Notes: generated by a model not told the origin, from the sequence alone. A stretch of DNA of 64,000 nt from a virus (IMGVR_UViG_3300037423_002564), one strand, 5' to 3'; counted from the stretch's first letter, positions 51,634 to 64,000 are shown. Translations and numbers: made by a program.

Positions 51634-52569
51634 ATGCACGACCCGTATTCCGCGTACCTCGCCAGCAAGCAGGCCGACGACAACGGCTTCGGGACCGCCC
51701 TGATGGCGGGCGGCGCGGGGGCGGCGGCGGGCTACGCCGCGAGCAAGATGGCGCCCCCGGCGGCGGCTGCCGCGCCCGCGGCCGAGGCGGCCGGCAGCCG
51801 GGCGGGCAACATCGTGAAGGCGGTGGCCCGCCAGGCCGTGCCGGTGGCGGTGAGCCTGCTGGCCCGCCGCATGGCGAAGGCTCCCAGCCTGGGGGCGACC
51901 GCGCCGAAGGGCGTGGTGCAGACCGGCGCGGCGCCGGCGATGCACGCGGGCCAGGTGCAGATGCACGGCGCCCCCCAGCCCATCGGCCCGCTCAAGATGG
52001 CGGCGCAGCTCGTGCATGACGCCATCGTCGAGGCGCTCGCCAAGGAGGCCGGCCAGCTCGATGCCGACCACCCCGACGTGGGCGCGTTCCTCGCGGCGAT
52101 CGTCGGCGAGATGAAGGTGGCCGCCACGGAGCTGGTGGTGGAGGCCCCGCTCTGGGAGAAGGCCGCGTCGGTGGACGGCGTGAGCGTGCTGATGGACGCT
52201 TGCGACTTCCTGGAGATCGCCTATGCCGGCCTGGGCAAGAGCGCGAGCCGTGCGCTCGCCACCAGCCAGATGGCGGGCAACGTCGGCCAGGCCGCGATGC
52301 AGAACTGGGGCAACATCGAGAGTATGAACCTGCCGGAGGGCCAGGAGGACGCGGCCGAGCGCCAGCACCTCGTGACCGGCGAGGACCCCGATCGCGGCCA
52401 GCGCTACAACCAGACGCGGGCCACCGTCGGGGCGGCCGTGGGCGCGACGGCGGGTTACGGCCTGGGTGTGGCCGCGGAGCGGGCGCTGGGGGCGGCGGCG
52501 CCGAAGGGCGTGCTGCCGGCCATGGGCGTGCTCGCTGGCGGCTACATGGGGCACGAGACCGGGCGCTAG
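51634..52569 (+). CDS. Putative internal virion protein (leader motif, glycine zippers)
   Basis: MHDPYSAYLASKQA; Gly/Ala hydrophobic segments; internal KEA, KAA, KSA. Confidence 0.6.
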   Translation: MHDPYSAYLASKQADDNGFGTALMAGGAGAAAGYAASKMAPPAAAAAPAAEAAGSRAGNIVKAVARQAVPVAVSLLARRMAKAPSLGATAPKGVVQTGAAPAMHAGQVQMHGAPQPIGPLKMAAQLVHDAIVEALAKEAGQLDADHPDVGAFLAAIVGEMKVAATELVVEAPLWEKAASVDGVSVLMDACDFLEIAYAGLGKSASRALATSQMAGNVGQAAMQNWGNIESMNLPEGQEDAAERQHLVTGEDPDRGQRYNQTRATVGAAVGATAGYGLGVAAERALGAAAPKGVLPAMGVLAGGYMGHETGR

Positions 52570-53277
52570 ATGGCGATCGAGCAGTGGCATGCGTGGAACT
52601 CCAACGGGCGGCGTCCAGATGATCTGGCGCCGCTCATGACCGCGTTCAAGCCCCTGATCGACCACGAGGTCCACCGCTGGAGCGCCAGCGGCCTGCCGAA
52701 GCTGGTGCTGGAGGCCGAAGCCAAGCGCCACGCCCTGGGGGCCTTCCAGACCTACAACCCGGAGCGGGGCTCCTTGCAGACCCACCTCATGAACCGGCTC
52801 AAGGGCATGAACACCTTCGTCAACACCTACCGCGCCGACGTGCGCATGTCCAACGAGCGCACGCTTCTGGCCGACAAGCTGACCCGCGCGCGCGAGGAGC
52901 TGAAGCTCGCCCTGGGCCGGGATGCCACCGACCCTGAGCTGGCCCGCCACATCGGCGTGGGGCAGACCACCATCGGCAAGCTGCACCGCTACCAGACGGC
53001 GCTCTACAGCCGCGCGGAGGAGGCGGGCTTCAACCAGCCGGCGCGCGAGGACCTGACGCACAGCCAGATCGTGGCCGACTTCCTGGTGCATGACCTGTCG
53101 GGGCCGCACCGGCTGGTCTTCGAGCACACCACCGGCTACGGCGGCAAGCCCATCCTGACCCCGGGCGAGCTGGCGAAGAAGCTGGGCGTGAGCCCCGGGC
53201 GCATCTCGCAGCTCAAGACCGACATCGCGGAGAAGGCGCGCGGCTACAACCGCGCCGTCGACTCCTTGCTGAACTAG
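52570..53277 (+). CDS. sigma70-family RNA polymerase sigma factor
   Basis: Region 2 (AFKPLIDHEV..AFQTYNPERGSLQTHL), region 3 (LGRDATDPELARHIG), region 4 HTH (TPGELAKKLGVSPGRISQL). Confidence 0.88.
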   Translation: MAIEQWHAWNSNGRRPDDLAPLMTAFKPLIDHEVHRWSASGLPKLVLEAEAKRHALGAFQTYNPERGSLQTHLMNRLKGMNTFVNTYRADVRMSNERTLLADKLTRAREELKLALGRDATDPELARHIGVGQTTIGKLHRYQTALYSRAEEAGFNQPAREDLTHSQIVADFLVHDLSGPHRLVFEHTTGYGGKPILTPGELAKKLGVSPGRISQLKTDIAEKARGYNRAVDSLLN

Positions 53278-53286
53278 GAGGATCCC

Positions 53287-53988
53287 ATGCCCGCGTTCCT
53301 GAAGACGCCCGAGGACGAACACCTGTGGAGCAAGGCCAAGGCCGTGGCCGCCCAAGAGGGGCACCACGAGGATTGGCCCTACGTCACGGGCATCTTCAAG
53401 AAGATGAAGGGCGGCGCGGTCTCGAAACGCGCCGCGGCCGACCCCCACGCCGCCTACATGGACAAGGTGGCCTCCGAGGCCGCGCTCGTCGGCGCGGGCC
53501 TCGGCGCCGCGGCGGGCTACGCCAACGCCAGCGCCCTGGGCGTGGAGTTCAAGCTCGCGCCGCGATCGCGGGACGAGGCGAAGCGCGACCAGGTGATCGA
53601 AGCCGCCGCCGGCCTGGGCCTGGGCGGCGCGGCCGGCCACGCCATGAGCCACCCGGGCTTCGAGGCCGCCTACCAGGGCGAGAACGCCGGCCGGCGCGCC
53701 GGGGCCGTGATGGAGCGGCTGGGGCGCGCGCTGCCCGACGTGCTGCGCCGCAAGGTGGCCGCGGGCCCCGCCTTCAACCTCTTCGGCAGCCCCGAGCAGG
53801 TCTACGACCGCGACACCCACGTCAAGCTGCTGCGCGCCAAGGCCGACCTCTCGCGCGCCAAGCTGGTCAACAGCCCCGGCTTCCAGAAGCTGGGCCCCAA
53901 GGGGCAGAAGCAGATCCTGGCCGCCCATGACAACGTCCACCAGACGATCGAGGAGGCCGTGATGGCCGGGAAGTACGGAGGCATCTAG
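53287..53988 (+). CDS. Putative internal virion protein
   Basis: LWSKAKAVA..WPYVTGIFKKM N-terminus; internal DPHAAYMDKVAS; glycine zippers. Confidence 0.6.
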   Translation: MPAFLKTPEDEHLWSKAKAVAAQEGHHEDWPYVTGIFKKMKGGAVSKRAAADPHAAYMDKVASEAALVGAGLGAAAGYANASALGVEFKLAPRSRDEAKRDQVIEAAAGLGLGGAAGHAMSHPGFEAAYQGENAGRRAGAVMERLGRALPDVLRRKVAAGPAFNLFGSPEQVYDRDTHVKLLRAKADLSRAKLVNSPGFQKLGPKGQKQILAAHDNVHQTIEEAVMAGKYGGI

Positions 53989-56369
53989 TGACGACCCCCT
54001 ACGAAGCGTTCCAGGCCGAGCGTCTGGAGAAGGCCGCGCTCGACCCGTTGAGCGTGGCGGCCACCATGGGCCTGGGCCACGTCGCCACGAACGCCGTGAT
54101 CAAGGCGCGCAACGCCGTGGGCGACTCCATCAGCCTGGGCGGGCGCAGCTTCGGGCCGCAGCAGGTGGTCCACGACGCCATCCACGATGCCCTTGAAGGC
54201 CGCATCGCGCACCCGGCGAAGCGCGAGCTGCACAAGCTGACCCTGGGCCCCGAGGTCCAAGGCCAGGAGTACGCGCTGCCGCACGCGCTCACCACGGAGT
54301 ACCTGCGCCGGGCGGGCGGCGACAAACTCAAGGCGCTCCAGATGATGAAGTCCACCGTCGGCACGCCGGAGTTCGGCAAGGGCGTGCAGGGCTACGCGCC
54401 CTCGGAGCACCTCAACGCGGCCGTCGCGGCGATGGACCCGGCCAAGCTGGGGCCCGCGCGCGGTGGCACGATCGCCTACCAGCCGGGCACCGCGGGCTAC
54501 GCCGCCAAGGAGACGGCCGGCAAGACGCTGGCGCGCGTGGGCGCCGCGGCGACGGGCGCCATCGACCCGCACCTGCCCATCATGGCGGGCCTGAACTTCG
54601 TCAAGGACATCGCCAACCGCCGCACGCCCATCGGCGCGGCGATCGCCAGCCGCCAGGTCGCGAAGGGCATGACCCAGGGGCCCAGCACCGGCGTGGCCCG
54701 CCAGCTCACCGACCTCATCGCGAGCCCGGGCGTCACGCAGATGCGCGACGCCGGCGCGGTGCTGGGCCGTGGCATCGACGCGGCGGCGCCGGCCTCGGTG
54801 GCCGCGGACATCAAGACGCGCGCCGCCCAGACGCTCCAGAGCCCCCAGAAGCTGGTGCAGGTGGCGGATGCCGTCCACCGCACCCAGCAGCAGGTGTCCC
54901 AGGCCGCGGCCAACGGCGGCGGGGCCCCGGTGGTGGCGAACGCCAAGGACTTCTTCCAGCACCTCGCGCCCGCGAGCCAGGGGGTGGTCACGGCCGCGGG
55001 CAAACAGGTGGCGCAGCAGGTCGGCAAGGCCGGCATCAAGGCCATCCAGACGCCCGGCGCCCAGAAGAACATCGAGACGGCCTACCACGCCACGGTGAAG
55101 GGCTACGATGCGGGCCGCGCGGCGGGCGCGACCGGCCGCGAACTGGGCCGCCACGTCGGCAACGAGCTGCTCGACGCCACCGTCAACAGCAAGCTGCCGG
55201 CGGGCGTCAAGGTGCGCATCCCCTCGGCCGACGAGGTGGCGGCGGGGGCGGCGGCGCCCAACCCGCAGGCCCAGTCCGCGGCGCAGCAGCCCGGCGCGTT
55301 CCACTCCCTGCTGCCGGTGGCCGGCGGCGCGGCGGCGGTGGGCGCGGGCATGGCGCTGGGCGGGGGCGGCAGCCGCTTCCAGGAGCACTACCAGGACGAC
55401 CCCTACGGCCAGAAGTACGCCGCGGCGATGGACGAGGAGCTGGACGTCCACCCGGAGCACCCCACCCAGATGGACATCCTCCAGGACGCCTTCATGTCGG
55501 TGATGGAGAACCCCCGGGGCACGGGCATCAGCCTGGGGCGCTTCGACCAGGTGCCGCAACCCCTGCGCATCCGCGCCAAGCAGGTCAACATCGCCAAGAG
55601 CATCAGCGCGGACGAGGCCCTGCACCGCGTGATCATGAGCAAGAACCACCAGCACCACCTGGCGCGCAAGGGCGGCCCGGCGGAGCGCGAAGCCTGGATC
55701 CAGGCGTTCAAGGACCGCTGGGTGGGCTCGGGCGGCTACCGCCTGGTGGACATGGACCTGGCCGACCTCAAGCACCGCCGCTTCAGCGTCGACGAGCGCA
55801 AGGTGGGCGAGCTGATGCTCAACCCGCCCAAGGACGACGGCAACTACCCCATCATCGGGCGCTGGCGCGGCAACGGCAACCACGCCCACGTGGTGCTGGA
55901 CGGCAACCACCGGGTCGAGGCGCTCCTGCGCACCGGCGAGAAGCGCATGAAGGCGTATGTTCAAGAGGATCTGGCCCACGAGTTGGACCGCAAGCGGCTG
56001 GGCGAGGCGGAGACCGTGGTCGCGGGCACCGGCCAGAAGGTGGCGGGCAGCACGCTGCACGACATCTTCGAGAGCTTCAGCGCCCCGATCGTCGCCATCC
56101 TGCGCAACGCCCAGGAGGACGAGCGCGCCGAGAAGCGCGCCTTCAACGTGACGGTGCCCGTGGATCTCCAGGACCACGCCACGCCCAGCGCCTTCCCCGA
56201 AGACACGAAGGGCCACATCCTGACCAGCCTGCGGGCCAACGCCCAAGGGCAAGCGGACCTCGCCATGATCCTCGCGTCGCTACGCGGGCAGGAGGGCACG
56301 CCGCACGCCAACGCCGCCATCACCCACTACATCGCCGGCCCCCATCTGGTGGGCCTCTTGAGGAGGTAG
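53988..56369 (+). CDS. Putative internal virion polyprotein with ParB/Srx-like domain
   Basis: MTTPYEAFQAERLEKAA leader; YPII..VVLDGNHRVEAL..GEKRMKAYV at about 55735-55965. Confidence 0.65.
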   Translation: MTTPYEAFQAERLEKAALDPLSVAATMGLGHVATNAVIKARNAVGDSISLGGRSFGPQQVVHDAIHDALEGRIAHPAKRELHKLTLGPEVQGQEYALPHALTTEYLRRAGGDKLKALQMMKSTVGTPEFGKGVQGYAPSEHLNAAVAAMDPAKLGPARGGTIAYQPGTAGYAAKETAGKTLARVGAAATGAIDPHLPIMAGLNFVKDIANRRTPIGAAIASRQVAKGMTQGPSTGVARQLTDLIASPGVTQMRDAGAVLGRGIDAAAPASVAADIKTRAAQTLQSPQKLVQVADAVHRTQQQVSQAAANGGGAPVVANAKDFFQHLAPASQGVVTAAGKQVAQQVGKAGIKAIQTPGAQKNIETAYHATVKGYDAGRAAGATGRELGRHVGNELLDATVNSKLPAGVKVRIPSADEVAAGAAAPNPQAQSAAQQPGAFHSLLPVAGGAAAVGAGMALGGGGSRFQEHYQDDPYGQKYAAAMDEELDVHPEHPTQMDILQDAFMSVMENPRGTGISLGRFDQVPQPLRIRAKQVNIAKSISADEALHRVIMSKNHQHHLARKGGPAEREAWIQAFKDRWVGSGGYRLVDMDLADLKHRRFSVDERKVGELMLNPPKDDGNYPIIGRWRGNGNHAHVVLDGNHRVEALLRTGEKRMKAYVQEDLAHELDRKRLGEAETVVAGTGQKVAGSTLHDIFESFSAPIVAILRNAQEDERAEKRAFNVTVPVDLQDHATPSAFPEDTKGHILTSLRANAQGQADLAMILASLRGQEGTPHANAAITHYIAGPHLVGLLRR

Positions 56370-56372
56370 CCC

Positions 56373-56792
56373 ATGCTCACGCCCTACGACGCCTACATGG
56401 ACCAGGTCAAGTCCGCCGCCCTGCCGGGATTCCTCGGCACGGCCGCCGGCGCCGTGCGCACCGGCGCCACCCAGGCCGCCGGCGCCATCAAGAGCACCGT
56501 CGCCACCCACGCGCCGACGCTCAAGACCATGGCCGGCCAGGCGCTGCCGCAGCTCGACCAGGCCACCAACGTCTACATGAAGGGCCGGGTCATCGCGGGC
56601 GACATCGCCCACAACGCCCCGCGCCTGCTGGGCAAGGAGCCCAAGGTGCCGGCGACCGCGAGCCCCACCAGCGCGATGCTGGGCCACATGGCGCTCGGCG
56701 CCGGCGGCATGTACATCGGCAACGAGCTGGTGCGTGACAAGGAAGCGCGCCTGGCCGAGGCCCTCGACCGCTTCATGCAGGCGCGGGGGTAG
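56373..56792 (+). CDS. Putative internal virion protein
   Basis: MLTPYDAYMDQVKSAA leader; C-terminal hydrophobic Gly segment. Confidence 0.6.
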   Translation: MLTPYDAYMDQVKSAALPGFLGTAAGAVRTGATQAAGAIKSTVATHAPTLKTMAGQALPQLDQATNVYMKGRVIAGDIAHNAPRLLGKEPKVPATASPTSAMLGHMALGAGGMYIGNELVRDKEARLAEALDRFMQARG

Positions 56793-56800
56793 GAGCTGGC

Positions 56801-59800
56801 ATGCGCACCCCCCAGGAAACCTTCGAGGCGATGAAGCAGGAGATCGCGGCCGGGCTGACGGCCGCGTTCCCCGTCACCAGCGGCAAGCGCACGCTGGAGC
56901 TTCACGACGTCCAGTTCGACCCGATGCCCGGTCATGACGACTGGAACGGGCAGAAGGAGGCGTCGCTCACCAACAAGACCTGGGGCGCGCCGGTGCGCGG
57001 CACCTTCAGCCTGAAGGACGAGCACGGCAAGACCATCGAGAAGAAGAGCGTGCGGTTGGGGCTCCTGCCCACGCCCACCAACCGCCACACCTTCATCGTG
57101 GACGGCCGCGAGTACCAGGTCAGCAACCAGCGCCGGCTGGGCCCGGGCCTGTACACCAAGGTCAACCGGCTGGGTCAGGCGCTGGCCGACTTCCAGGTCA
57201 AGCACGGCCGCAACTTCAGCGTGGGCCTCGACCCCGCGAGCAACCAGTTCTACATGAAGTACGCCAACACCCACATCCCGCTCACGGCCGTGATGCAGGG
57301 CCTGTGGCACGACGGCCCCGCGGTGGGCAAGGCGTTCGAGCACGAGCACACGCCGCAGGAGGTGGACGACGCGCTGCACACGCTGTGGGCCGAAACCCAG
57401 CGGGAGCCCGCGCCGACGAAGCCCGATGAACTCAAAATGAAGCTACGCGACTACTTCAATAAGACCACCATGGACCCCGCGGTGAACCAGATGACGGTCG
57501 GCCACGGCCACCCCACGGTGAACGTGCAGGCGCTCCAGGACGCCGCGAAGCACGTCTTGGAGATCCACCGCGGCGAGCGCATGCCCAGCGGTCGCGACGA
57601 CCTGGGCTTCGCCGACATCCACGGCGTCGAGGACTTCCTGCGCGAGCGGCTGGAGGGCGGCAAGGGGCTCATCGCGGCGAAGCTCCGCCAGAAGCTCGAC
57701 CGGGCGGATGGCCTGGGCGGCCTGAACCTGCAAGGGGCGATCGCCCCGCAGTTACATAACTTCTTCACCACCAGCGAGATGTCGAACAACCCCATCCAGG
57801 TCAACCCGCTGGAGATGAAGGAGAACGCCTTCAAGCTGACCTCGATGGGCAAGGGCGGCATCGGCGACTCCAACGCCATCCCGGCGGAGGTACGCGCGAT
57901 CCACCCCAGCCAGAGCGGCTTCATCGACCCCGTGCGCACGCCGGACAACGCCAAGGCCGGCGTGGACGTGCGCGCGACCTTGGGCGCGAAGAAGGTGGGC
58001 AAGCGCATGCAGGCGCCGATGGTGAACGTCAAGACCGGCAAGACGGAGATGCTCACGCCCCAGCAGCTCTACGACAAGTTCGTGGCCCACGACAAGGAGA
58101 CGCCCATCAACGGCTTCGTGCGCGCCATCCACCGCGGCCAGATCGTGGACGTCGACCCCAAGCAGGTGGACTACCACATCCCGACCGAGCAGGCATGGAC
58201 GGTCTCGACGGCCCTGGTGCCGTTCCTACCCAACAGCCACGCCCACCGCGCGGCGATGGGGGCGAAGATGCTGGGCCAGGCGCTGTCGCTCGCGGAGCGC
58301 GAGCGCCCGATCGTCGACACCCTGCACTCCGACGAGGCCATCCAGGGCCTCTTGCCCGTGGCGCCGGTGGCGGGCACGGTGCATCGCATCACGCCCGGCG
58401 TGGTCACGATCAAGGACGCCCAGGGCGGCCTGCACCCGGTCCACTACGCCCACGAGTTCCCGCTCAACGGCGGCAGCTATCTGGATACGAAGCTTCATTT
58501 CCAGGTGGGCGACACGGTCAAGAAGGGCACGGTGCTGGGCGACAACAACTTCACGCAGGCCGGCTCGCTGGCTCTCGGGAAGAACCTGCACGTCGCCATG
58601 CTGCCGCTCGAAGGCCACAACTACGAGGACGGCATCGCGGTCACGGAGACCGGCGCGAAGAAGCTCACGAGCCTGCACCTGCACACCGAGGAGGTCGAGG
58701 CCGACGAGCGCACGGTCAACGACCTGACGCGCTTCCGCGCGCACTTCCCGGGCAAGTTCGAGGTCTCGCACCTCGCCAAGCTCGACGACAAGGGCGTGGT
58801 CAAGGTGGGGCAGACCCTCAAGGAGGGCGACCCCATCTTCGCGATGCTGCGCAAGCGCGTGACCAACCCGGAGAGCCTGATCCTGGGCAAGGCCCACAAG
58901 AGCCTGATGGAGCCCTACCGCGACGCGAGCGTGGTCTGGGAGAAGCCCTACGAGGGCAAGGTCACGGCCGTCGCCAAGACGCCCAAGGGCTTCAAGGTGA
59001 CGATCGCCGCGGCGGCGCCCGCACAAATTGGCGACAAGCTGGCCGGGCGCTTCGGTAACAAGGGCGTCATCACGACCATCATCCCCGACCACGAGGCGCC
59101 GCGCACCGTCGACGGCAAGATCCCCGACGTGTTCCTCAACACGGCCGGTCTGCCCAGCCGCATGAACCCGGCCCAGATCTACGAGATGGCCGCCGGCAAG
59201 GCGCTCCAGGCCATGGGCAAGGCCACGGAGAAGTTCCCCCAGTTCTTGGGGGTCAACAGCCACACCTTCGTGAAGAAGCTCGTCGCCAAGGCGGGCGTGA
59301 CGGAGCGCGACACCTTCATCGACCCCAAGACCGGCCTGAAGCTGCACGACCCCGTGCTGAACGGCCCGATGTACATGCTCAAGCTGTTCAAGCAGGCGGA
59401 CACGGGCTACAGCGCGCGCTCCGGCGGCGCCTACGACATCGACCTGCGCCCGGCCAAGGGCGGCGAGGAGGGGGCGAAGTCCGTGGGCACGCTCGACCTG
59501 GCCGGGCTCCTGGCCCACGGCGCGACCAGCTTCCTGCGCGAGGCCGCGACCTACAAGGCGGAGTATAACCCGGAGGTCTTCGCGCACATGTGGCGCGGGC
59601 TGCCGCTGCCGCCGCCCAAGCCGACCTTCGCCTACAACAAGTTCCTCACGATGGTGCAGGGCATGGGGCTCAACGTCAAGAAGGACGGCTCCAAGCTGAT
59701 GCTGCTGCCGATGCGCGACGCCGACACGCTCGCCATCAGCAGCGGGCCCGTCACCAAGCCGCTCACGGTGATGGACAAGGAGGATCCGCACACCAACCTG

Positions 59801-61096
59801 CCCTTCCGGCCGGAGGAGGGCGGCCTGTTCGACCCCACCACCACCGGCGGCCTGGTGGGCAACCGCTGGAGCCACATCACGCTGGCCGAGCCCGTCGTCA
59901 ACCCGCTCTTCCACCACCCCGTGCGCACGATCCTGGGGATGAGCAAGCAGGAGTTCAAGGACACGCTGGCCGCGGAGGGCGGCGCCAGCATCGCCAAGCG
60001 GTTGGGCACCGTCAACCCGGGCGCTCGCATCGAGGCCCTCAAGAAGGAGCTGAAGACCACCAACGCCACGGCGCGGCGGGACGACATCTACAAGCAGCTC
60101 CGCTACCTCACGGCCCTGGACAAGAACGGCCTGCGGCCGGACGACGCCTACGTGATGAAGCACGTCCCGGTGGTGCCGCCCACGATCCGCCCGATCTACC
60201 CGGACGCCGACACCGGCCAGGTCACGGTCTCCGACGCCAACCGGCTGTACCAGAACCTGATGCTCGTCTCCGACCAGCTCGCCGCCCATGCCAAGGACGG
60301 CGACCCGGAGACGGTCAAGGCGCTGCGGGTCGGCCTGCATGACGCGGTTGCCAAGGTGCAGGGCCTCGACGGCAACGCGGAGGCCATCGTCAAGGCCGGC
60401 GAGCGCGAGCCCAAGGGCTTCCTCCAGATCATCACGGGCGGCCGGGCCAAGGAGGGCTTCTTCCAGTCCAAGCTGATGACCCGCCGCCAGGACGTGGCCG
60501 GCCGCGGCGTGGTGGTGCCCGACCCCAGCCTGGGCATCGACGACATCGGCATCCCCGAGGCCCAGGCGTGGAAGCTCTACCGCAACCACGCGGTGGGCGA
60601 GCTGGTGAAGAGCGGCATGCCGCTGACGGCCGCGGCGGAGGCGGTGGAGTCCCGCAACGCGACCGCGCGCACGGCGCTCGACCTCGCGATGAAGAACGCG
60701 CCCCTGATCCTCTCGCGCGCGCCCAGCCTGCACAAGTTCAACTTGCAGGCGTTCAAACCGCAGGTGGTGGGCGGCAAGAGCATCCGCGTGAACAACCTGA
60801 TCCACAAGGGCTTCAACATGGACCACGACGGGGACGCCTGCAACCTGCACGTCCCCCTGGGCCCGGAGGCGATCGCCGACGCCTTCCGTATGATGCCCTC
60901 CAACAACCTCTACAACCCGCTGAACCGCAACCCGGTCCACCAGCCGACCAACGAGACCACGATGGGGCTCTGGAAGGTCACGAACGTGGGCGAGAGCAAG
61001 CCCACGCGCCACTTCGCGAGCCAGGCGGAGGCGGTGGCCGCCTTCAAGCGCGGCGACATCCGTATCGACGAGCCCATCGAGATCACGGGCCTATAA
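56801..61096 (+). CDS. Phage multisubunit-type RNA polymerase: beta fused to the N-terminal part of beta'
   Basis: beta motifs GGIG..RAIHPSQSGFIDPVRTPD, PFL..RAAMGAKM, GHNYEDG, GDKLAGRFGNKG, PSRMN, MYMLKL..AR..G.Y; beta' motifs GGLFD, HITLAEPV, PVVPPTIRP, SRAPSLH, catalytic NMDHDGD (60815-60835). Confidence 0.95.
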   Translation: MRTPQETFEAMKQEIAAGLTAAFPVTSGKRTLELHDVQFDPMPGHDDWNGQKEASLTNKTWGAPVRGTFSLKDEHGKTIEKKSVRLGLLPTPTNRHTFIVDGREYQVSNQRRLGPGLYTKVNRLGQALADFQVKHGRNFSVGLDPASNQFYMKYANTHIPLTAVMQGLWHDGPAVGKAFEHEHTPQEVDDALHTLWAETQREPAPTKPDELKMKLRDYFNKTTMDPAVNQMTVGHGHPTVNVQALQDAAKHVLEIHRGERMPSGRDDLGFADIHGVEDFLRERLEGGKGLIAAKLRQKLDRADGLGGLNLQGAIAPQLHNFFTTSEMSNNPIQVNPLEMKENAFKLTSMGKGGIGDSNAIPAEVRAIHPSQSGFIDPVRTPDNAKAGVDVRATLGAKKVGKRMQAPMVNVKTGKTEMLTPQQLYDKFVAHDKETPINGFVRAIHRGQIVDVDPKQVDYHIPTEQAWTVSTALVPFLPNSHAHRAAMGAKMLGQALSLAERERPIVDTLHSDEAIQGLLPVAPVAGTVHRITPGVVTIKDAQGGLHPVHYAHEFPLNGGSYLDTKLHFQVGDTVKKGTVLGDNNFTQAGSLALGKNLHVAMLPLEGHNYEDGIAVTETGAKKLTSLHLHTEEVEADERTVNDLTRFRAHFPGKFEVSHLAKLDDKGVVKVGQTLKEGDPIFAMLRKRVTNPESLILGKAHKSLMEPYRDASVVWEKPYEGKVTAVAKTPKGFKVTIAAAAPAQIGDKLAGRFGNKGVITTIIPDHEAPRTVDGKIPDVFLNTAGLPSRMNPAQIYEMAAGKALQAMGKATEKFPQFLGVNSHTFVKKLVAKAGVTERDTFIDPKTGLKLHDPVLNGPMYMLKLFKQADTGYSARSGGAYDIDLRPAKGGEEGAKSVGTLDLAGLLAHGATSFLREAATYKAEYNPEVFAHMWRGLPLPPPKPTFAYNKFLTMVQGMGLNVKKDGSKLMLLPMRDADTLAISSGPVTKPLTVMDKEDPHTNLPFRPEEGGLFDPTTTGGLVGNRWSHITLAEPVVNPLFHHPVRTILGMSKQEFKDTLAAEGGASIAKRLGTVNPGARIEALKKELKTTNATARRDDIYKQLRYLTALDKNGLRPDDAYVMKHVPVVPPTIRPIYPDADTGQVTVSDANRLYQNLMLVSDQLAAHAKDGDPETVKALRVGLHDAVAKVQGLDGNAEAIVKAGEREPKGFLQIITGGRAKEGFFQSKLMTRRQDVAGRGVVVPDPSLGIDDIGIPEAQAWKLYRNHAVGELVKSGMPLTAAAEAVESRNATARTALDLAMKNAPLILSRAPSLHKFNLQAFKPQVVGGKSIRVNNLIHKGFNMDHDGDACNLHVPLGPEAIADAFRMMPSNNLYNPLNRNPVHQPTNETTMGLWKVTNVGESKPTRHFASQAEAVAAFKRGDIRIDEPIEITGL

Positions 61097-61097
61097 T
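61092..61097 (+). promoter_or_regulatory. TATAAT -10 element overlapping the RNAP stop codon
   Basis: GCCTATAATAGGG, 20 nt above ATG 61117. Confidence 0.6.
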
Positions 61098-61116
61098 AGG
61101 GCCAGGAGGCAAGCCT

Positions 61117-61485
61117 ATGTTCGACGCGCACACCGCCTACATGGCCCGGGTCAAGGTCGCCCTCGACACCGACAGCCGCGACCCGATCAACCAGGTCTCC
61201 GCCGCCGGCGCGGGCCTCGGTGCGGCCACCGGCGCCGCCCTCGTCCACAAGGCCGTGGCCCCGCACGTCGCGATGGCGAAGGACGAGGCCAACTACCTGA
61301 AGACCTTCCACGCCGGCAAGCCCGTCCCCCTGATGGACAGCCTGCGCATCAACCGCGGCACCGGCTTCGCCGGCAAGGTGCATGGCGGTGCGATGCTCGC
61401 GGGCGCCGCCGCCGGTGCGATCCTGGGCGCCGCGCCCGGCGTCGTGATGGCGCTGGGCAACAAGTTCGGGGAGCCCGAGCATTGA
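61117..61485 (+). CDS. Putative internal virion protein (two glycine zippers)
   Basis: GGAGG RBS; MFDAHTAYMARVKVA leader; AAGAGLGAATGAA and GAAAGAILGAAPG. Confidence 0.65.
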   Translation: MFDAHTAYMARVKVALDTDSRDPINQVSAAGAGLGAATGAALVHKAVAPHVAMAKDEANYLKTFHAGKPVPLMDSLRINRGTGFAGKVHGGAMLAGAAAGAILGAAPGVVMALGNKFGEPEH

Positions 61486-64000
61486 CGACGCCCTGGGACG
61501 CCTACCAGGCCCAGAAGCAAGCCGCTCCTACCCCCGAGGCCCTGCGCCACCTGCGCCGGCTGGAGGGGTCCGTCGGCGGCACGAAGGCCGACTTCGTCTT
61601 CGAGCTGGCGAAGCAGAACGACCCCGACTTCACACTGGCGGACGTCAAGGATGCCGAGCGCGAGGCCAACCAGCGCTGCATGCGCTGCGAATGCGACCTG
61701 TCCGACTGCGAGTGCCCGGGCGGCCCCGAGCACTTCAAGCGCGCATCGATCATGGACGGCATGCAGTGGGATCCCGACCACCTGGCCGCCTTCATCGAGG
61801 CCGGCCGGAACAACTGGAAGGCGCTCTTCGGCGACAAGACTGAGGCCGACCTCAAGGCGGAGTACCGCGAGCGGCTGCTGCGGGACGGCAGCTCGTGGCC
61901 GGAAGGGTCGCGGGGCTACCAGATGGACCTCGACGACCTGGCGGCCAACCCGCCCGTGCCCGGCGAGCCCGGCTACGCGCCCTGGTTCGCGCGCACGATG
62001 AAGCACCGGCTGGGACAGGGGGGCTCGCGGCCGGGGCGGGACTACGACAACCTCCTGGCGCGTGTGCATGCCCGCCGGAACGGCCTGCCGGAGCCGGAGC
62101 TGACCAAGGCCGCGGCCGTGGACTGGAAGAACCGCCCGGGCGTGCGCGCCGTCGTCACCGACGAGCGCGATCGCGTGCTGCTGCTCAAGCGGCCCGCCAA
62201 GGAGGAGTTCCACCCCAACACCTGGAACCTGCCCGGCGGCGCCAAGGAGCCCGACGAGGGATTCCGCACGGGCGCCCTGCGCGAGCTGAAGGAGGAGACC
62301 GGCCTCACCGCGACCCCCACCGGCCAGCGCCACGTCTTCACGTGGCCGGGCGGCCGGGGCGAGGCGTTCGCGATGGAGGAGCCCCGGGGCACGCTGAAGC
62401 TCCAGGCCAAGGAGGTGGCGGAGGCGCGCTGGTTCGACCCGGCCAAGCTGCCCAAGAAGCTCTTCCCGCAGACCGCGGCCATCGTGCAGGCGCTGGTGGC
62501 GAAGCGCGCGGCCTTGAAGAAGGACGTCGAGCTGATGCCGCACCAGCAGGCCGCGGTGAGCAAGGTGCTCGCCAACGACGGCTCCTTGCTGGTGGCCCAC
62601 GGTACGGGCACCGGCAAGACGCCGACCTCCGCCGCGGCCGTCGAGGCCCTGCGCGCGAAGGGCAAGGCCCACATCACGCTGGCCGTCACGCCGGCCGCGC
62701 TGCGCGAGAACATGATCGAGGGCGGCGTCCATAAGTTCACCGACCAGAAGGGCGTGATCCTGGGCGCCAAGGGCGAGCCGGGCACCACCCACATCGACCA
62801 CCCCAGCCTGCCGGAGGCCAGCTACTACGCGGTCTCCAACGAGATGTTCCGCAAGGACCCGCACAAGTACATCGACAAGACCCACGCCGACACCATCGTC
62901 TGGGACGAGATCCACAAGGGCCGCGACGACGAGACCGCGAACTACGCGGCGATGATGGCGGTCCGCCCCAAGGTGCGCAACTTCATCGGGCTGACCGGCA
63001 CCCCCGTGAACAACCATCCGCGCGACATCGTGCCCGTGCTCGACATCGTAACGAACAAACGTCACGGGTTGGGGGCGGCCAAGGGCAAGGGGCCGAACAC
63101 CTTCGAGAACCGCTTCATGGAGACCGTGGAGAAGCACCACGGCCCCCTGGGCTTCCTGGGCATCGGCCCCAAGAGCACGGAGACCCGCCTCAAGCACACG
63201 GACTACCTCCAGCACGAGTTGAGCAAGCACGTCCACTACGTGCCGACCGAGGACGTGGCGAAGGACATGCCGGCCAAGGAGGTCCACGACGTCGAGGTGC
63301 CCATGAGCGGCCACCAGCAGAACCTGTACCACTTCGCGATGAACAAGATCGACCCGATGACGCGCTGGAAGATCCGCATGAACCTGCCCGTGGGCCAGGG
63401 CGAGGCCCAGCACATCTTCGCGCGCATCACCAAGGCCCGCCAGGTCTCCAACGCCGTCCACACGCTGGACGGCAAGCACGATCCGCGCTCCAGCGCCGAG
63501 GCCACCCCCAAGATCCACCGCCTGGTCGAGGACGTGGACCGGGAGATGAAGGCCCACCCGAACAACAAGGCCATCGTCTACACCAACTTCGTCCATGGCG
63601 GCGTCGACGCGGTGGCGGAGGGCCTGCGCGCGCGCGGCCACGACCCCGGCTTCTTCCTGGGCTCGACCCACCAGACCCGCAAGGACCGCGCGCAGCATGT
63701 CCAGGACTACTTGAGCGGCAAGCGGCGCATCATGATCATCAACAGCGCCGGCACCGAGGGCCTCAACCTGCCCGGCACCACCAGCCACCACACGCTCGAC
63801 CCGCATTTCAACCCGGCCGTAACCGAGCAGCAGGAGGCCCGCGGCATCCGCGCCGGATCGCCGGTCAAGAGCGTGCGGGTCTACCGCTACCGCTCCACCC
63901 TGCCGCGCGGGATGGGCGGCTTCCTGCCGGCCGAGACCAGCGCCGACCAGTGGGTGCAGAACACGGCCGACCGCAAGGAGAAGCTGAACCACCAGTTCTT
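61482..64000 (+). CDS. Nudix hydrolase - SNF2/Swi2 helicase fusion, partial (absent from the ORF track because it has no stop in the window)
   Basis: TTG start (TTGA overlap); Nudix box GAKEPDEGFRTGALRELKEETGL (62238-62306); Q-motif LMPHQ, Walker A GTGTGKT, DEIH, LTGTP, helicase-C AGTEGLNL and QQEARGIR. Confidence 0.9.
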   Translation, partial: MTTPWDAYQAQKQAAPTPEALRHLRRLEGSVGGTKADFVFELAKQNDPDFTLADVKDAEREANQRCMRCECDLSDCECPGGPEHFKRASIMDGMQWDPDHLAAFIEAGRNNWKALFGDKTEADLKAEYRERLLRDGSSWPEGSRGYQMDLDDLAANPPVPGEPGYAPWFARTMKHRLGQGGSRPGRDYDNLLARVHARRNGLPEPELTKAAAVDWKNRPGVRAVVTDERDRVLLLKRPAKEEFHPNTWNLPGGAKEPDEGFRTGALRELKEETGLTATPTGQRHVFTWPGGRGEAFAMEEPRGTLKLQAKEVAEARWFDPAKLPKKLFPQTAAIVQALVAKRAALKKDVELMPHQQAAVSKVLANDGSLLVAHGTGTGKTPTSAAAVEALRAKGKAHITLAVTPAALRENMIEGGVHKFTDQKGVILGAKGEPGTTHIDHPSLPEASYYAVSNEMFRKDPHKYIDKTHADTIVWDEIHKGRDDETANYAAMMAVRPKVRNFIGLTGTPVNNHPRDIVPVLDIVTNKRHGLGAAKGKGPNTFENRFMETVEKHHGPLGFLGIGPKSTETRLKHTDYLQHELSKHVHYVPTEDVAKDMPAKEVHDVEVPMSGHQQNLYHFAMNKIDPMTRWKIRMNLPVGQGEAQHIFARITKARQVSNAVHTLDGKHDPRSSAEATPKIHRLVEDVDREMKAHPNNKAIVYTNFVHGGVDAVAEGLRARGHDPGFFLGSTHQTRKDRAQHVQDYLSGKRRIMIINSAGTEGLNLPGTTSHHTLDPHFNPAVTEQQEARGIRAGSPVKSVRVYRYRSTLPRGMGGFLPAETSADQWVQNTADRKEKLNHQF

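Follow-up and report, generated by a model that had tools for sequence, protein, structure and literature searches.

The proteins encoded around the RNA polymerase (RNAP) genes of an uncultured virus, IMGVR_UViG_3300037423_002564, share a short leader peptide composed of a box with two aromatic residues and, after a variable spacer, the motif K-x-A. We characterized this leader in a 64,000-nucleotide stretch of viral DNA (the window), which corresponds to bases 15088-79087 of a single 203,733-bp contig of 67.6% GC, and followed it through the rest of the genome and into related phages. It is carried by nine proteins, at residue 1 in eight of them, and is almost certainly a functional peptide. 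On balance, we slightly favour the view that it is a capsid-targeting sequence that would be removed at K-x-A, and that would mark proteins destined to stay inside the head or to be ejected from it.

The genome encodes a terminase, a portal, a major capsid protein (MCP), tail proteins, a multisubunit-type RNAP and a sigma-like factor. Among cultured phages, Salmonella phage Arash and three Vibrio phages come closest, with approximately 30% protein identity. Nearer relatives, all metagenomic, were found by way of the RNAP, protein C, protein I and the head protease (see below), in which they are 53-63% identical; their GC contents range from 57 to 69%. A metagenome scan with the RNAP alignment returned a single 5.5-kb relative only, and a homolog search with protein C returned one relative. 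The leader is present in at least eight of these related phages.

Leader copies in the window and in the genome

A first-pass annotation of the window had listed seven peptides as copies of a common leader, and all seven were recovered where it had placed them. A loose regular expression, run in six frames over the 203,733-bp genome, gave eight matches, seven of which were these copies. We then employed a profile built from the copies to search every open frame of the genome, a check that the annotation had proposed, and found exactly ten places above noise (10.9-26.7 bits); the next-best forward match (8.8 bits) lies in a non-coding frame and the maximum for the reversed proteome was 5.5 bits. 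This search added three N-terminal copies outside the window, on the proteins named here H, I and J; the leader-bearing proteins within it are A, B, C, D, F and G. When each copy was left out of the profile in turn, nine copies scored 11.1-28.8 bits against a background of at most 6.4 bits. The nine are the following:

51634..51675, plus strand: leader of protein A, MHDPYSAYLASKQA (leave-one-out 12.9 bits)
53440..53472, plus strand: internal leader copy of protein B, DPHAAYMDKVA (leave-one-out 11.8 bits)
53988..54035, plus strand: leader of protein C, MTTPYEAFQAERLEKA, GTG start (leave-one-out 16.7 bits)
56373..56417, plus strand: leader of protein D, MLTPYDAYMDQVKSA (leave-one-out 28.8 bits, the top-scoring copy)
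61117..61161, plus strand: leader of protein F, MFDAHTAYMARVKVA (leave-one-out 17.1 bits)
61482..61523, plus strand: leader of protein G, MTTPWDAYQAQKQA, TTG start (leave-one-out 20.9 bits)
genome position 106707, plus strand: protein H, 93 amino acids, N-terminal profile match
genome position 103809, plus strand: protein I, 271 amino acids, N-terminal profile match
genome position 96390, minus strand: protein J, 194 amino acids, N-terminal profile match

In nine of the ten (the RNAP copy being counted here), the leader sits exactly at the start codon, and in six of the seven originally listed the start codon lies 5-9 nucleotides 3' of a GGAGG-like ribosome-binding site (A, 51634; C, 53988, GTG; D, 56373; RNAP, 56801; F, 61117; G, 61482, TTG). 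The copy at 53440 in protein B is internal, as had been claimed: it is preceded by a segment of 49 residues that has an AGGAGG site of its own and an unremarkable coding bias (GC content at third codon positions 0.92). In their mature parts, the proteins are indeed unrelated, with no cross-matches at E < 0.01; paralogy of the mature proteins as the source of the shared leader was rejected. The sigma-like factor does lack the leader, as had been noted, and the same holds for its L030 ortholog; nor was the leader found on the second RNAP subunit or on the tail and baseplate proteins encoded directly upstream of the A-D block.

Over 37 leaders collected from this genome and its relatives, the box reads [TDRS]-P-[YFHW]-[DEQ]-[ALV]-[YFW]-[LMQ]-[AD]. 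The two aromatic positions, [YFHW] at i and [YFW] at i+3, are occupied in 37 of 37, in a collection that was partly selected for that pattern. K-x-A follows in 29 of the 32 non-RNAP leaders, within the 18-28 residues that were collected, against a background of 0.0055 per residue; where the leader has a box, the spacer between box and K-x-A measures 1-16 residues.

In the relatives, the leader is kept on the counterparts of A, C, D, H, I, J and the helicase. An alignment of 11 orthologs of I shows residues P4, K14 and A16 to be invariant, whereas the stretch from box to K-x-A ranges from 0 to 8 residues in length; the mature part is strongly conserved right after the site (VDALVPGQVG). In one relative, two different proteins begin with MTPYELYMAR and two others with MDPYTAYQ, and within each pair there are three synonymous differences. 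Since identical leaders differ at synonymous sites, selection acts on the peptide and not on a copied DNA or RNA element.

The head block, its protease and K-x-A sites

Two of the additional copies, I and H, flank the gene for the head-maturation protease, which fits the first-pass proposal of a leader for head proteins. The order of this head block is the same in all relatives. It runs from the terminase through three small genes, I and a glycine-zipper protein whose leader is degenerate to the 471-amino-acid protease, and from there through H, a scaffold-like acidic protein and two or three small proteins to MCP. The scaffold-like protein carries a related leader ([YF]-[IL]-acidic-x-[LV]-[IL] ... 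K-x-A), and one of the small proteins, S2, has full leaders in three relatives; the leaders of both terminate in K-x-A. As for the window itself, genes A-D follow the baseplate and tail block and correspond by synteny to gp8-gp17 of Arash, a set of which almost every member was detected in the particles of that phage. Orthologs of the helicase, the sigma-like factor and both RNAP subunits were also detected there.

The protease was identified by homology and fold:

genome 105292-106707 (L008 12292-13707), between I and H: head-maturation protease, 471 amino acids

Its relatives amount to about 2,400 cluster representatives. Of 84 homologs sampled from these, 58 match phrog_18299 ('head maturation protease'). 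The protease is homologous to Arash gp222 and to gp19 of Bacillus phage G (tblastn E 4e-10 for gp19), the latter annotated as a head maturation protease (PMC12484599). Neither the protease nor the 84 homologs matched Pfam, and a sequence-profile search of the PDB gave no relative of the protease. Its AlphaFold2 model, with a predicted local distance difference test (pLDDT) value of 83, shows a folded domain (approximately residues 56-270), which a disordered linker joins to a helical C-terminal part. The best structural match in the PDB is T4 gp21 (5jbl_A; Z 9.6, root-mean-square deviation 3.2, 131 aligned residues), followed by herpesvirus proteases at Z 7-8.9, and the top 34 Foldseek matches belong nearly all to the gp21 or herpesvirus group. 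H139 and S193 are invariant in the 84 homologs and are the putative catalytic residues. We also note, within the gp21/assemblin fold, an invariant S-M-G-C ... C-S-I-C-G-N ... Y-C-x-H block, which is a possible metal site, as well as the long helical C-terminal domain.

K-x-A recurs in this protease and in its presumed substrates. Among the 84 homologs, K53 is present in 78 and A55 in 76, K267 and A269 each in 79, and S270 in 45; K53-x-A55 and K267-x-A269 thus bracket the catalytic domain, adjoining low-confidence linkers. In six close orthologs, the protease has K-x-A-[ST] at two places, about 17-25 and about 50 residues before its C-terminal end, and K-x-A-F-N-x-G lies 14-29 residues from the C-terminus of the scaffold. 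Corresponding K-x-A places exist in Arash gp222, gp223, gp220 and the Arash capsid protein. K-x-A also stands at about residue 30 of MCP in every relative, which alone is not significant, the chance of such a site within 40 residues being about 20%. In head-core proteins, the motif is 2-5 times as frequent as expected; its counts, with expectations from composition-matched shuffles, were as follows:

Protease: 14 observed, 2.7 expected
p254: 8 observed, 2.0 expected
Scaffold: 8 observed, 3.8 expected
S2: 3 observed, 0.7 expected
Protein A: 7 observed, 2.6 expected
Whole proteome: 303 observed, 265 expected

One motif common to protease, scaffold and leaders is what would be expected if the enzyme processed all three, itself included, at that motif, in the way that T4 gp21 uses [LI]-x-E. 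A co-fold of the full protease (84-row alignment) with residues 1-45 of I (11 rows) scored 0.08 against a mark of 0.32, a result that counts neither way on binding.

The second entry, p254, is a 254-amino-acid protein of the head block (genome 102368-103132; L008 9368-10132) whose N-terminus, N-I-K-P/Q-x-L-E-A-E-A, is kept in all relatives. Possibly, p254 belongs to the core or scaffold and is broken down as the head matures.

RNA polymerase and the individual leader-bearing proteins

The first-pass annotation had counted the RNAP as a bearer of a variant leader. Our analysis does not bear this out. The features concerned are:

56801..61096, plus strand: RNAP, fusion of beta and N-terminal beta', 1431 amino acids, N-terminus MRTPQETFEAMKQE (Pfam Rpb2_6 and Rpb1_2)
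52570..53277, plus strand: leaderless sigma-factor-like gene (weak Pfam Sigma70 regions 3 and 4; phrog_351)

The RNAP N-terminus, MRTPQETFEAM, gets no leave-one-out match, and its orthologs in seven relatives read R-[TA]-P-x3-[FH]-x-[AD]-M, or MREAGETFDAM in L030, in which the first aromatic residue and K-x-A are missing. Because the RNAP has no leave-one-out score and its orthologs keep a distinct N-terminus, we excluded it from the leader family; membership was rejected as a resemblance by eye only. It follows that a cargo set including a virion RNAP, as had been proposed, is not implied by the motif, the RNAP copy being statistically unrecognisable.

The genome holds a single RNAP set, made of the fusion, the end of which comes shortly after the NMDHDGD loop, and of a C-terminal beta' protein encoded separately (65338-67182 in window numbering, outside the window); the Nudix-SNF2 gene (protein G) and two small genes lie between the two. 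Over its full length, the RNAP is 32.7% identical to Arash gp206, the most detected protein in Arash particles (PMC10585845). The RNAP of the present virus may thus be a virion protein by analogy, with the proteomics of its 33%-identical Arash homolog as the sole source (PMC10585845). The virion RNAP of SPN3US has no cleaved leader and is packaged in the form of an assembled complex (PMC5694885), which gives a packaged, leaderless RNAP a precedent. If packaged, the RNAP would probably enter as a passenger of something else, as in the phiKZ-type virion polymerase, which has no cleaved tag.

The sigma-like gene is the ortholog of Arash gp10, a protein detected in Arash particles. We note that it is located within the block of virion proteins here, and likewise in Arash.

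Protein A (51634-52569, 311 amino acids) is rich in Gly and Ala and contains glycine-zipper segments; its L030 ortholog begins with MRPHDHFLRAKQAD. Protein B (53287-53988, 233 amino acids) has glycine-zipper segments after its leader copy. Residues 1-49 of B, which precede the leader (window 53287-53433, beginning with MPAFLKTPEDEHLWSKAKAV), are absent from the L030 protein at the same position, which begins with MNETKQAV. Protein C (53988-56369, 793 amino acids) gives a weak match to a ParB-like domain, and its orthologs begin with MTTPYEAYMADQMDKAA in L030 and MKTPYDLYLEQQQTEKEA in L025. Directly 5' of the RNAP gene lies D (56373-56792, 139 amino acids), and small leader-bearing genes are found just 5' of the RNAP in relatives too (MFDPYKSYMARVKHA in L030, MTPYELYMARQKEAA in L026). 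Protein F (61117-61485, 122 amino acids), with glycine-zipper segments, is encoded directly 3' of the RNAP gene.

Protein G (61482-64019, 845 amino acids, ending 19 nucleotides beyond the window) is a fusion of a Cys-rich segment, a Nudix domain and an SNF2 helicase. In relatives, the leader can stand directly on the helicase, as in MTPYQCYLAKMGA (G2) and MRPYELFLAKTA (L027), and comparison by eye with these two N-termini revealed what appears to be a remnant of such a leader inside G:

62481..62519, plus strand: relic helicase leader at the Nudix/SNF2 junction of G, residues 334-346, AIVQALVAKRAAL

In this relic, the aromatic residues are lost and K-x-A is kept (compare TPYQCYLAKMGAL at the N-terminus of the G2 helicase). 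G therefore looks like an older leader-bearing helicase to which an N-terminal module was added, comprising a new leader, the Cys-rich segment, a domain of no assigned family and Nudix. K-x-A occurs in G at residues 12, 56, 86, 209 and 341, all within the first 341 residues, and the 500-residue helicase part has none; this points only weakly to G being a polyprotein.

A second shared element is present in four leader-bearing or neighbouring small proteins. It is a glycine zipper with Tyr, G-[AT]-x-A-G-Y-x-x-x, located at window positions 51718-51744 and 52441-52467 (A) and 53503-53529 (B), and at genome positions 104508-104534 (I) and 104882-104908 (a 214-amino-acid protein). It suggests membrane-inserting or oligomerising ejection proteins.

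Apart from these proteins, the terminase large-subunit (TerL) genes of relatives L022 (5819-8158) and L024 (5204-8101) contain inteins (Intein_splicing, with LAGLIDADG in one). Inteins are absent from TerL of the source genome (553 codons between stops) and of L023 (530 amino acids).

Proposed function of the leader and relation to known systems

We propose that the leader is an N-terminal label in two parts, which would address proteins for incorporation into the head. The first part, the aromatic box, probably begins a short helix and would attach the protein to some component of the prohead core during assembly. The second part, K-x-A, placed after 1-16 variable residues, is read as the site at which the phage's own head-maturation protease would cut, after Ala. 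Once assembly is complete, the protease would remove the leader and would also cut itself and the scaffold at K-x-A. The mature glycine-zipper proteins, the ParB-like protein and the Nudix-SNF2 enzyme would then be free in the head, and would probably be ejected into the host with the DNA. This is largely what the first-pass annotation had put forward, namely a capsid-targeting sequence with a K-x-A site that marks cargo, and the leader architecture, the conservation of the peptide throughout the clade, the copies flanking the protease and the behaviour of K-x-A agree with it; the part that falls away is the membership of the RNAP.

That the leader loads proteins into the head is quite likely in our judgement, and its removal at K-x-A, as predicted from the sequences, is moderately likely. 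A more general formulation would be a modular code, in which the aromatic box addresses the prohead core, and a separable K-x-A is read by a large, uncharacterised clade of gp21/assemblin-fold head proteases, to which Arash gp222 and phage G gp19 belong among about 2,400 representatives. These enzymes would cut after Ala, like the herpesvirus proteases, whereas the phage relatives studied so far all cut after Glu. We offer this extension tentatively, at a little under an even chance.

Several observations weigh against targeting and cleavage. The AlphaFold2 model of protein I is poor (mean pLDDT 54), with a low-confidence hint of a helix at residues 4-20. K-x-A is not enriched in most leader-bearing proteins, the enzymes among them included, and a few orthologous leaders lack it (KQS in I of G1; K-x-G-A in H and the helicase of G2). 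The copy in B is internal. The K-x-A at the end of the protease domain falls in a confidently modelled strand, and for this reason K267-x-A269 may be under structural constraint; more generally, K-x-A could be conserved for binding instead of cleavage. In Arash, at approximately 30% identity, the leader is absent (the best profile score there is 3.0). Its particle list comprises 116 proteins, and carry-over within that set is therefore likely. Finally, the proposal draws on sequences, a fold model and the particles of distant Arash, and the leader-bearing proteins are known here from their genes alone.

Some of these points would be accommodated if the leader were a permanent docking peptide, in which the whole sequence, K-x-A included, binds a head or portal component or another partner and is not removed. 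K-x-A belongs to the conserved leader and could be a pair of binding residues, the B copy is internal, an old leader persists inside G, and the phiKZ-type virion RNAP is packaged unprocessed (PMC5694885). However, one would not usually expect a single binding epitope to include a spacer of 1-16 residues, and permanent docking leaves aside that K-x-A stands on both sides of the protease domain in the 84 homologs and is enriched in proteins of the scaffold type, which must leave the head. We regard this explanation as unlikely, if worth keeping in mind.

The evidence that links K-x-A to the protease would apply in full, on the other hand, to a leader that is a processing or degradation signal only, with the aromatic box as an exosite, K-x-A as the cut site and the mature parts deciding on incorporation; the strong conservation of I just past the site (VDALVPGQVG) agrees with this. 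The SNF2-Nudix, ParB-like and small glycine-zipper proteins would, however, each need a prohead route of their own, and the equivalent aromatic positions in T4 are targeting determinants (PMC9026906). A purely processing role is, in our estimation, distinctly improbable.

We give slightly less credence still to an address for another place or partner (for example the membrane, the phage RNAP, or a chaperone of secretion or ejection), in which case the leader-bearing proteins would not be head proteins. Six copies do cluster around the RNAP and sigma genes, many of the proteins have membrane-like glycine-zipper segments, and the leader is weakly predicted to be helical. Against this, I and H flank the protease, scaffold-like proteins bear related leaders, the A-D region is syntenic with a block of Arash particle proteins, the tail and baseplate proteins just upstream are leaderless, and the link between K-x-A and the head protease would have to be a coincidence.

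A nucleotide-level element (a translation-initiation region, promoter or repeat) or a chance product of Ala-rich, high-GC composition has a negligible probability and was rejected: the leader DNAs do look alike, because high GC narrows the choice of codons, but the DNA upstream of them is dissimilar, identical peptides differ at synonymous sites, the leader is retained in relatives at 57% GC, the spacer is variable in length, and the reversed-proteome and six-frame controls contained nothing comparable.

The capsid-targeting proposal has its closest parallel in T4, where a capsid-targeting sequence (CTS) sits on IPI, IPII, IPIII and Alt and is removed by the prohead protease gp21. The T4 CTS reads MKTYQEFIAE (PMC8442874); targeting depends on its residues 4 and 7 (Tyr and Phe) and processing on residues 8 and 10, and when position 10 is changed the leader is no longer cut but packaging persists (PMC9026906). 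As in T4, a short N-terminal leader is common to unrelated proteins and presents Thr, then aromatics at i and i+3, then a P3-x-P1 site; a gp21-fold protease is encoded in the head module; and core or scaffold proteins and the protease itself carry the site. Unlike T4, the present leader has Pro before the first aromatic and a variable spacer, and the predicted site is K-x-A (P1 Ala) and not [LI]-x-E (P1 Glu). Indeed, Glu is not conserved at the end of the 37 leaders, which conform neither to [LI]-x-E nor to [SAG]-x-E. The cargo sequences are not homologous to those of T4, homology of the leaders is undetectable, and the cargo would consist of large enzymes and glycine-zipper proteins, whereas that of T4 consists of small basic internal proteins. 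The lineage is also a different one, of high GC and with a multisubunit-type RNAP, and its scheme is read from genes.

In herpesviruses, assemblin (the pUL26-type protease-scaffold precursor) is cut at release and maturation sites of the form [VLI]-x-A|S. The protease described here resembles it in fold (Z 7-8.9), in its succession of N-terminal catalytic domain, linker and helical C-terminal part, and in sites that, as predicted from sequence, have Ala at P1, include x-A-S at the end of the catalytic domain (K267-V-A269-S270), and recur approximately 25 residues from the protease and scaffold C-termini. It differs in that P3 is Lys and not hydrophobic, the scaffold is a separate gene, and no sequence relationship is detectable. 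To our knowledge, herpesviruses do not use a shared N-terminal cargo leader.

Phages of the phiKZ and SPN3US type have N-terminal propeptides that are cut at a three-residue motif, a protease that cleaves itself, and some paralogs with identical N-termini (PMC5694885). Like phiKZ, the present virus is a jumbo phage with an RNAP of the multisubunit type, which its head may contain along with many proteins for ejection; the phiKZ motif, however, is [SAG]-x-E, its propeptides are mostly long, and it has two RNAP sets versus one here. The phage G gp19-type family (phrog_18299/phrog_2774) shares with the present protease the K-x-A sites that flank the catalytic domain, and in the literature searched we found neither a cleavage specificity nor a cargo leader for it. 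Cargo-loading peptides of encapsulins are short and C-terminal (rarely N-terminal), and bind the inner face of an HK97-fold shell uncleaved. The likeness to these is one of analogy only, as the leader described here is N-terminal and is followed by a predicted protease site. We know of experimentally established capsid-targeting leaders only from T4 and, in the form of long propeptides, from phiKZ-type phages, and the proteases concerned all cut after Glu.

The general idea of capsid-targeting leaders is thus already established, which limits the surprise. If our reading is correct, the principle would also hold in large high-GC phages of an unrelated lineage, and for a head-protease family that is widespread but has no Pfam family. 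For that family, our reading provides a testable prediction of specificity, K-x-A with cutting after Ala, and a protease-scaffold layout that parallels that of herpesviruses. The leader would also be an engineering handle for loading proteins into these capsids. The leader rule lists the proteins probably delivered to the host (glycine-zipper, ParB-like and Nudix-SNF2 proteins), apart from the RNAP, which must use another route; this cargo would include a Nudix-SNF2 enzyme that is possibly cut into separate parts. More broadly, for an entire group of large phages that are uncultured, the injected cargo could then be read off the genome sequence itself.

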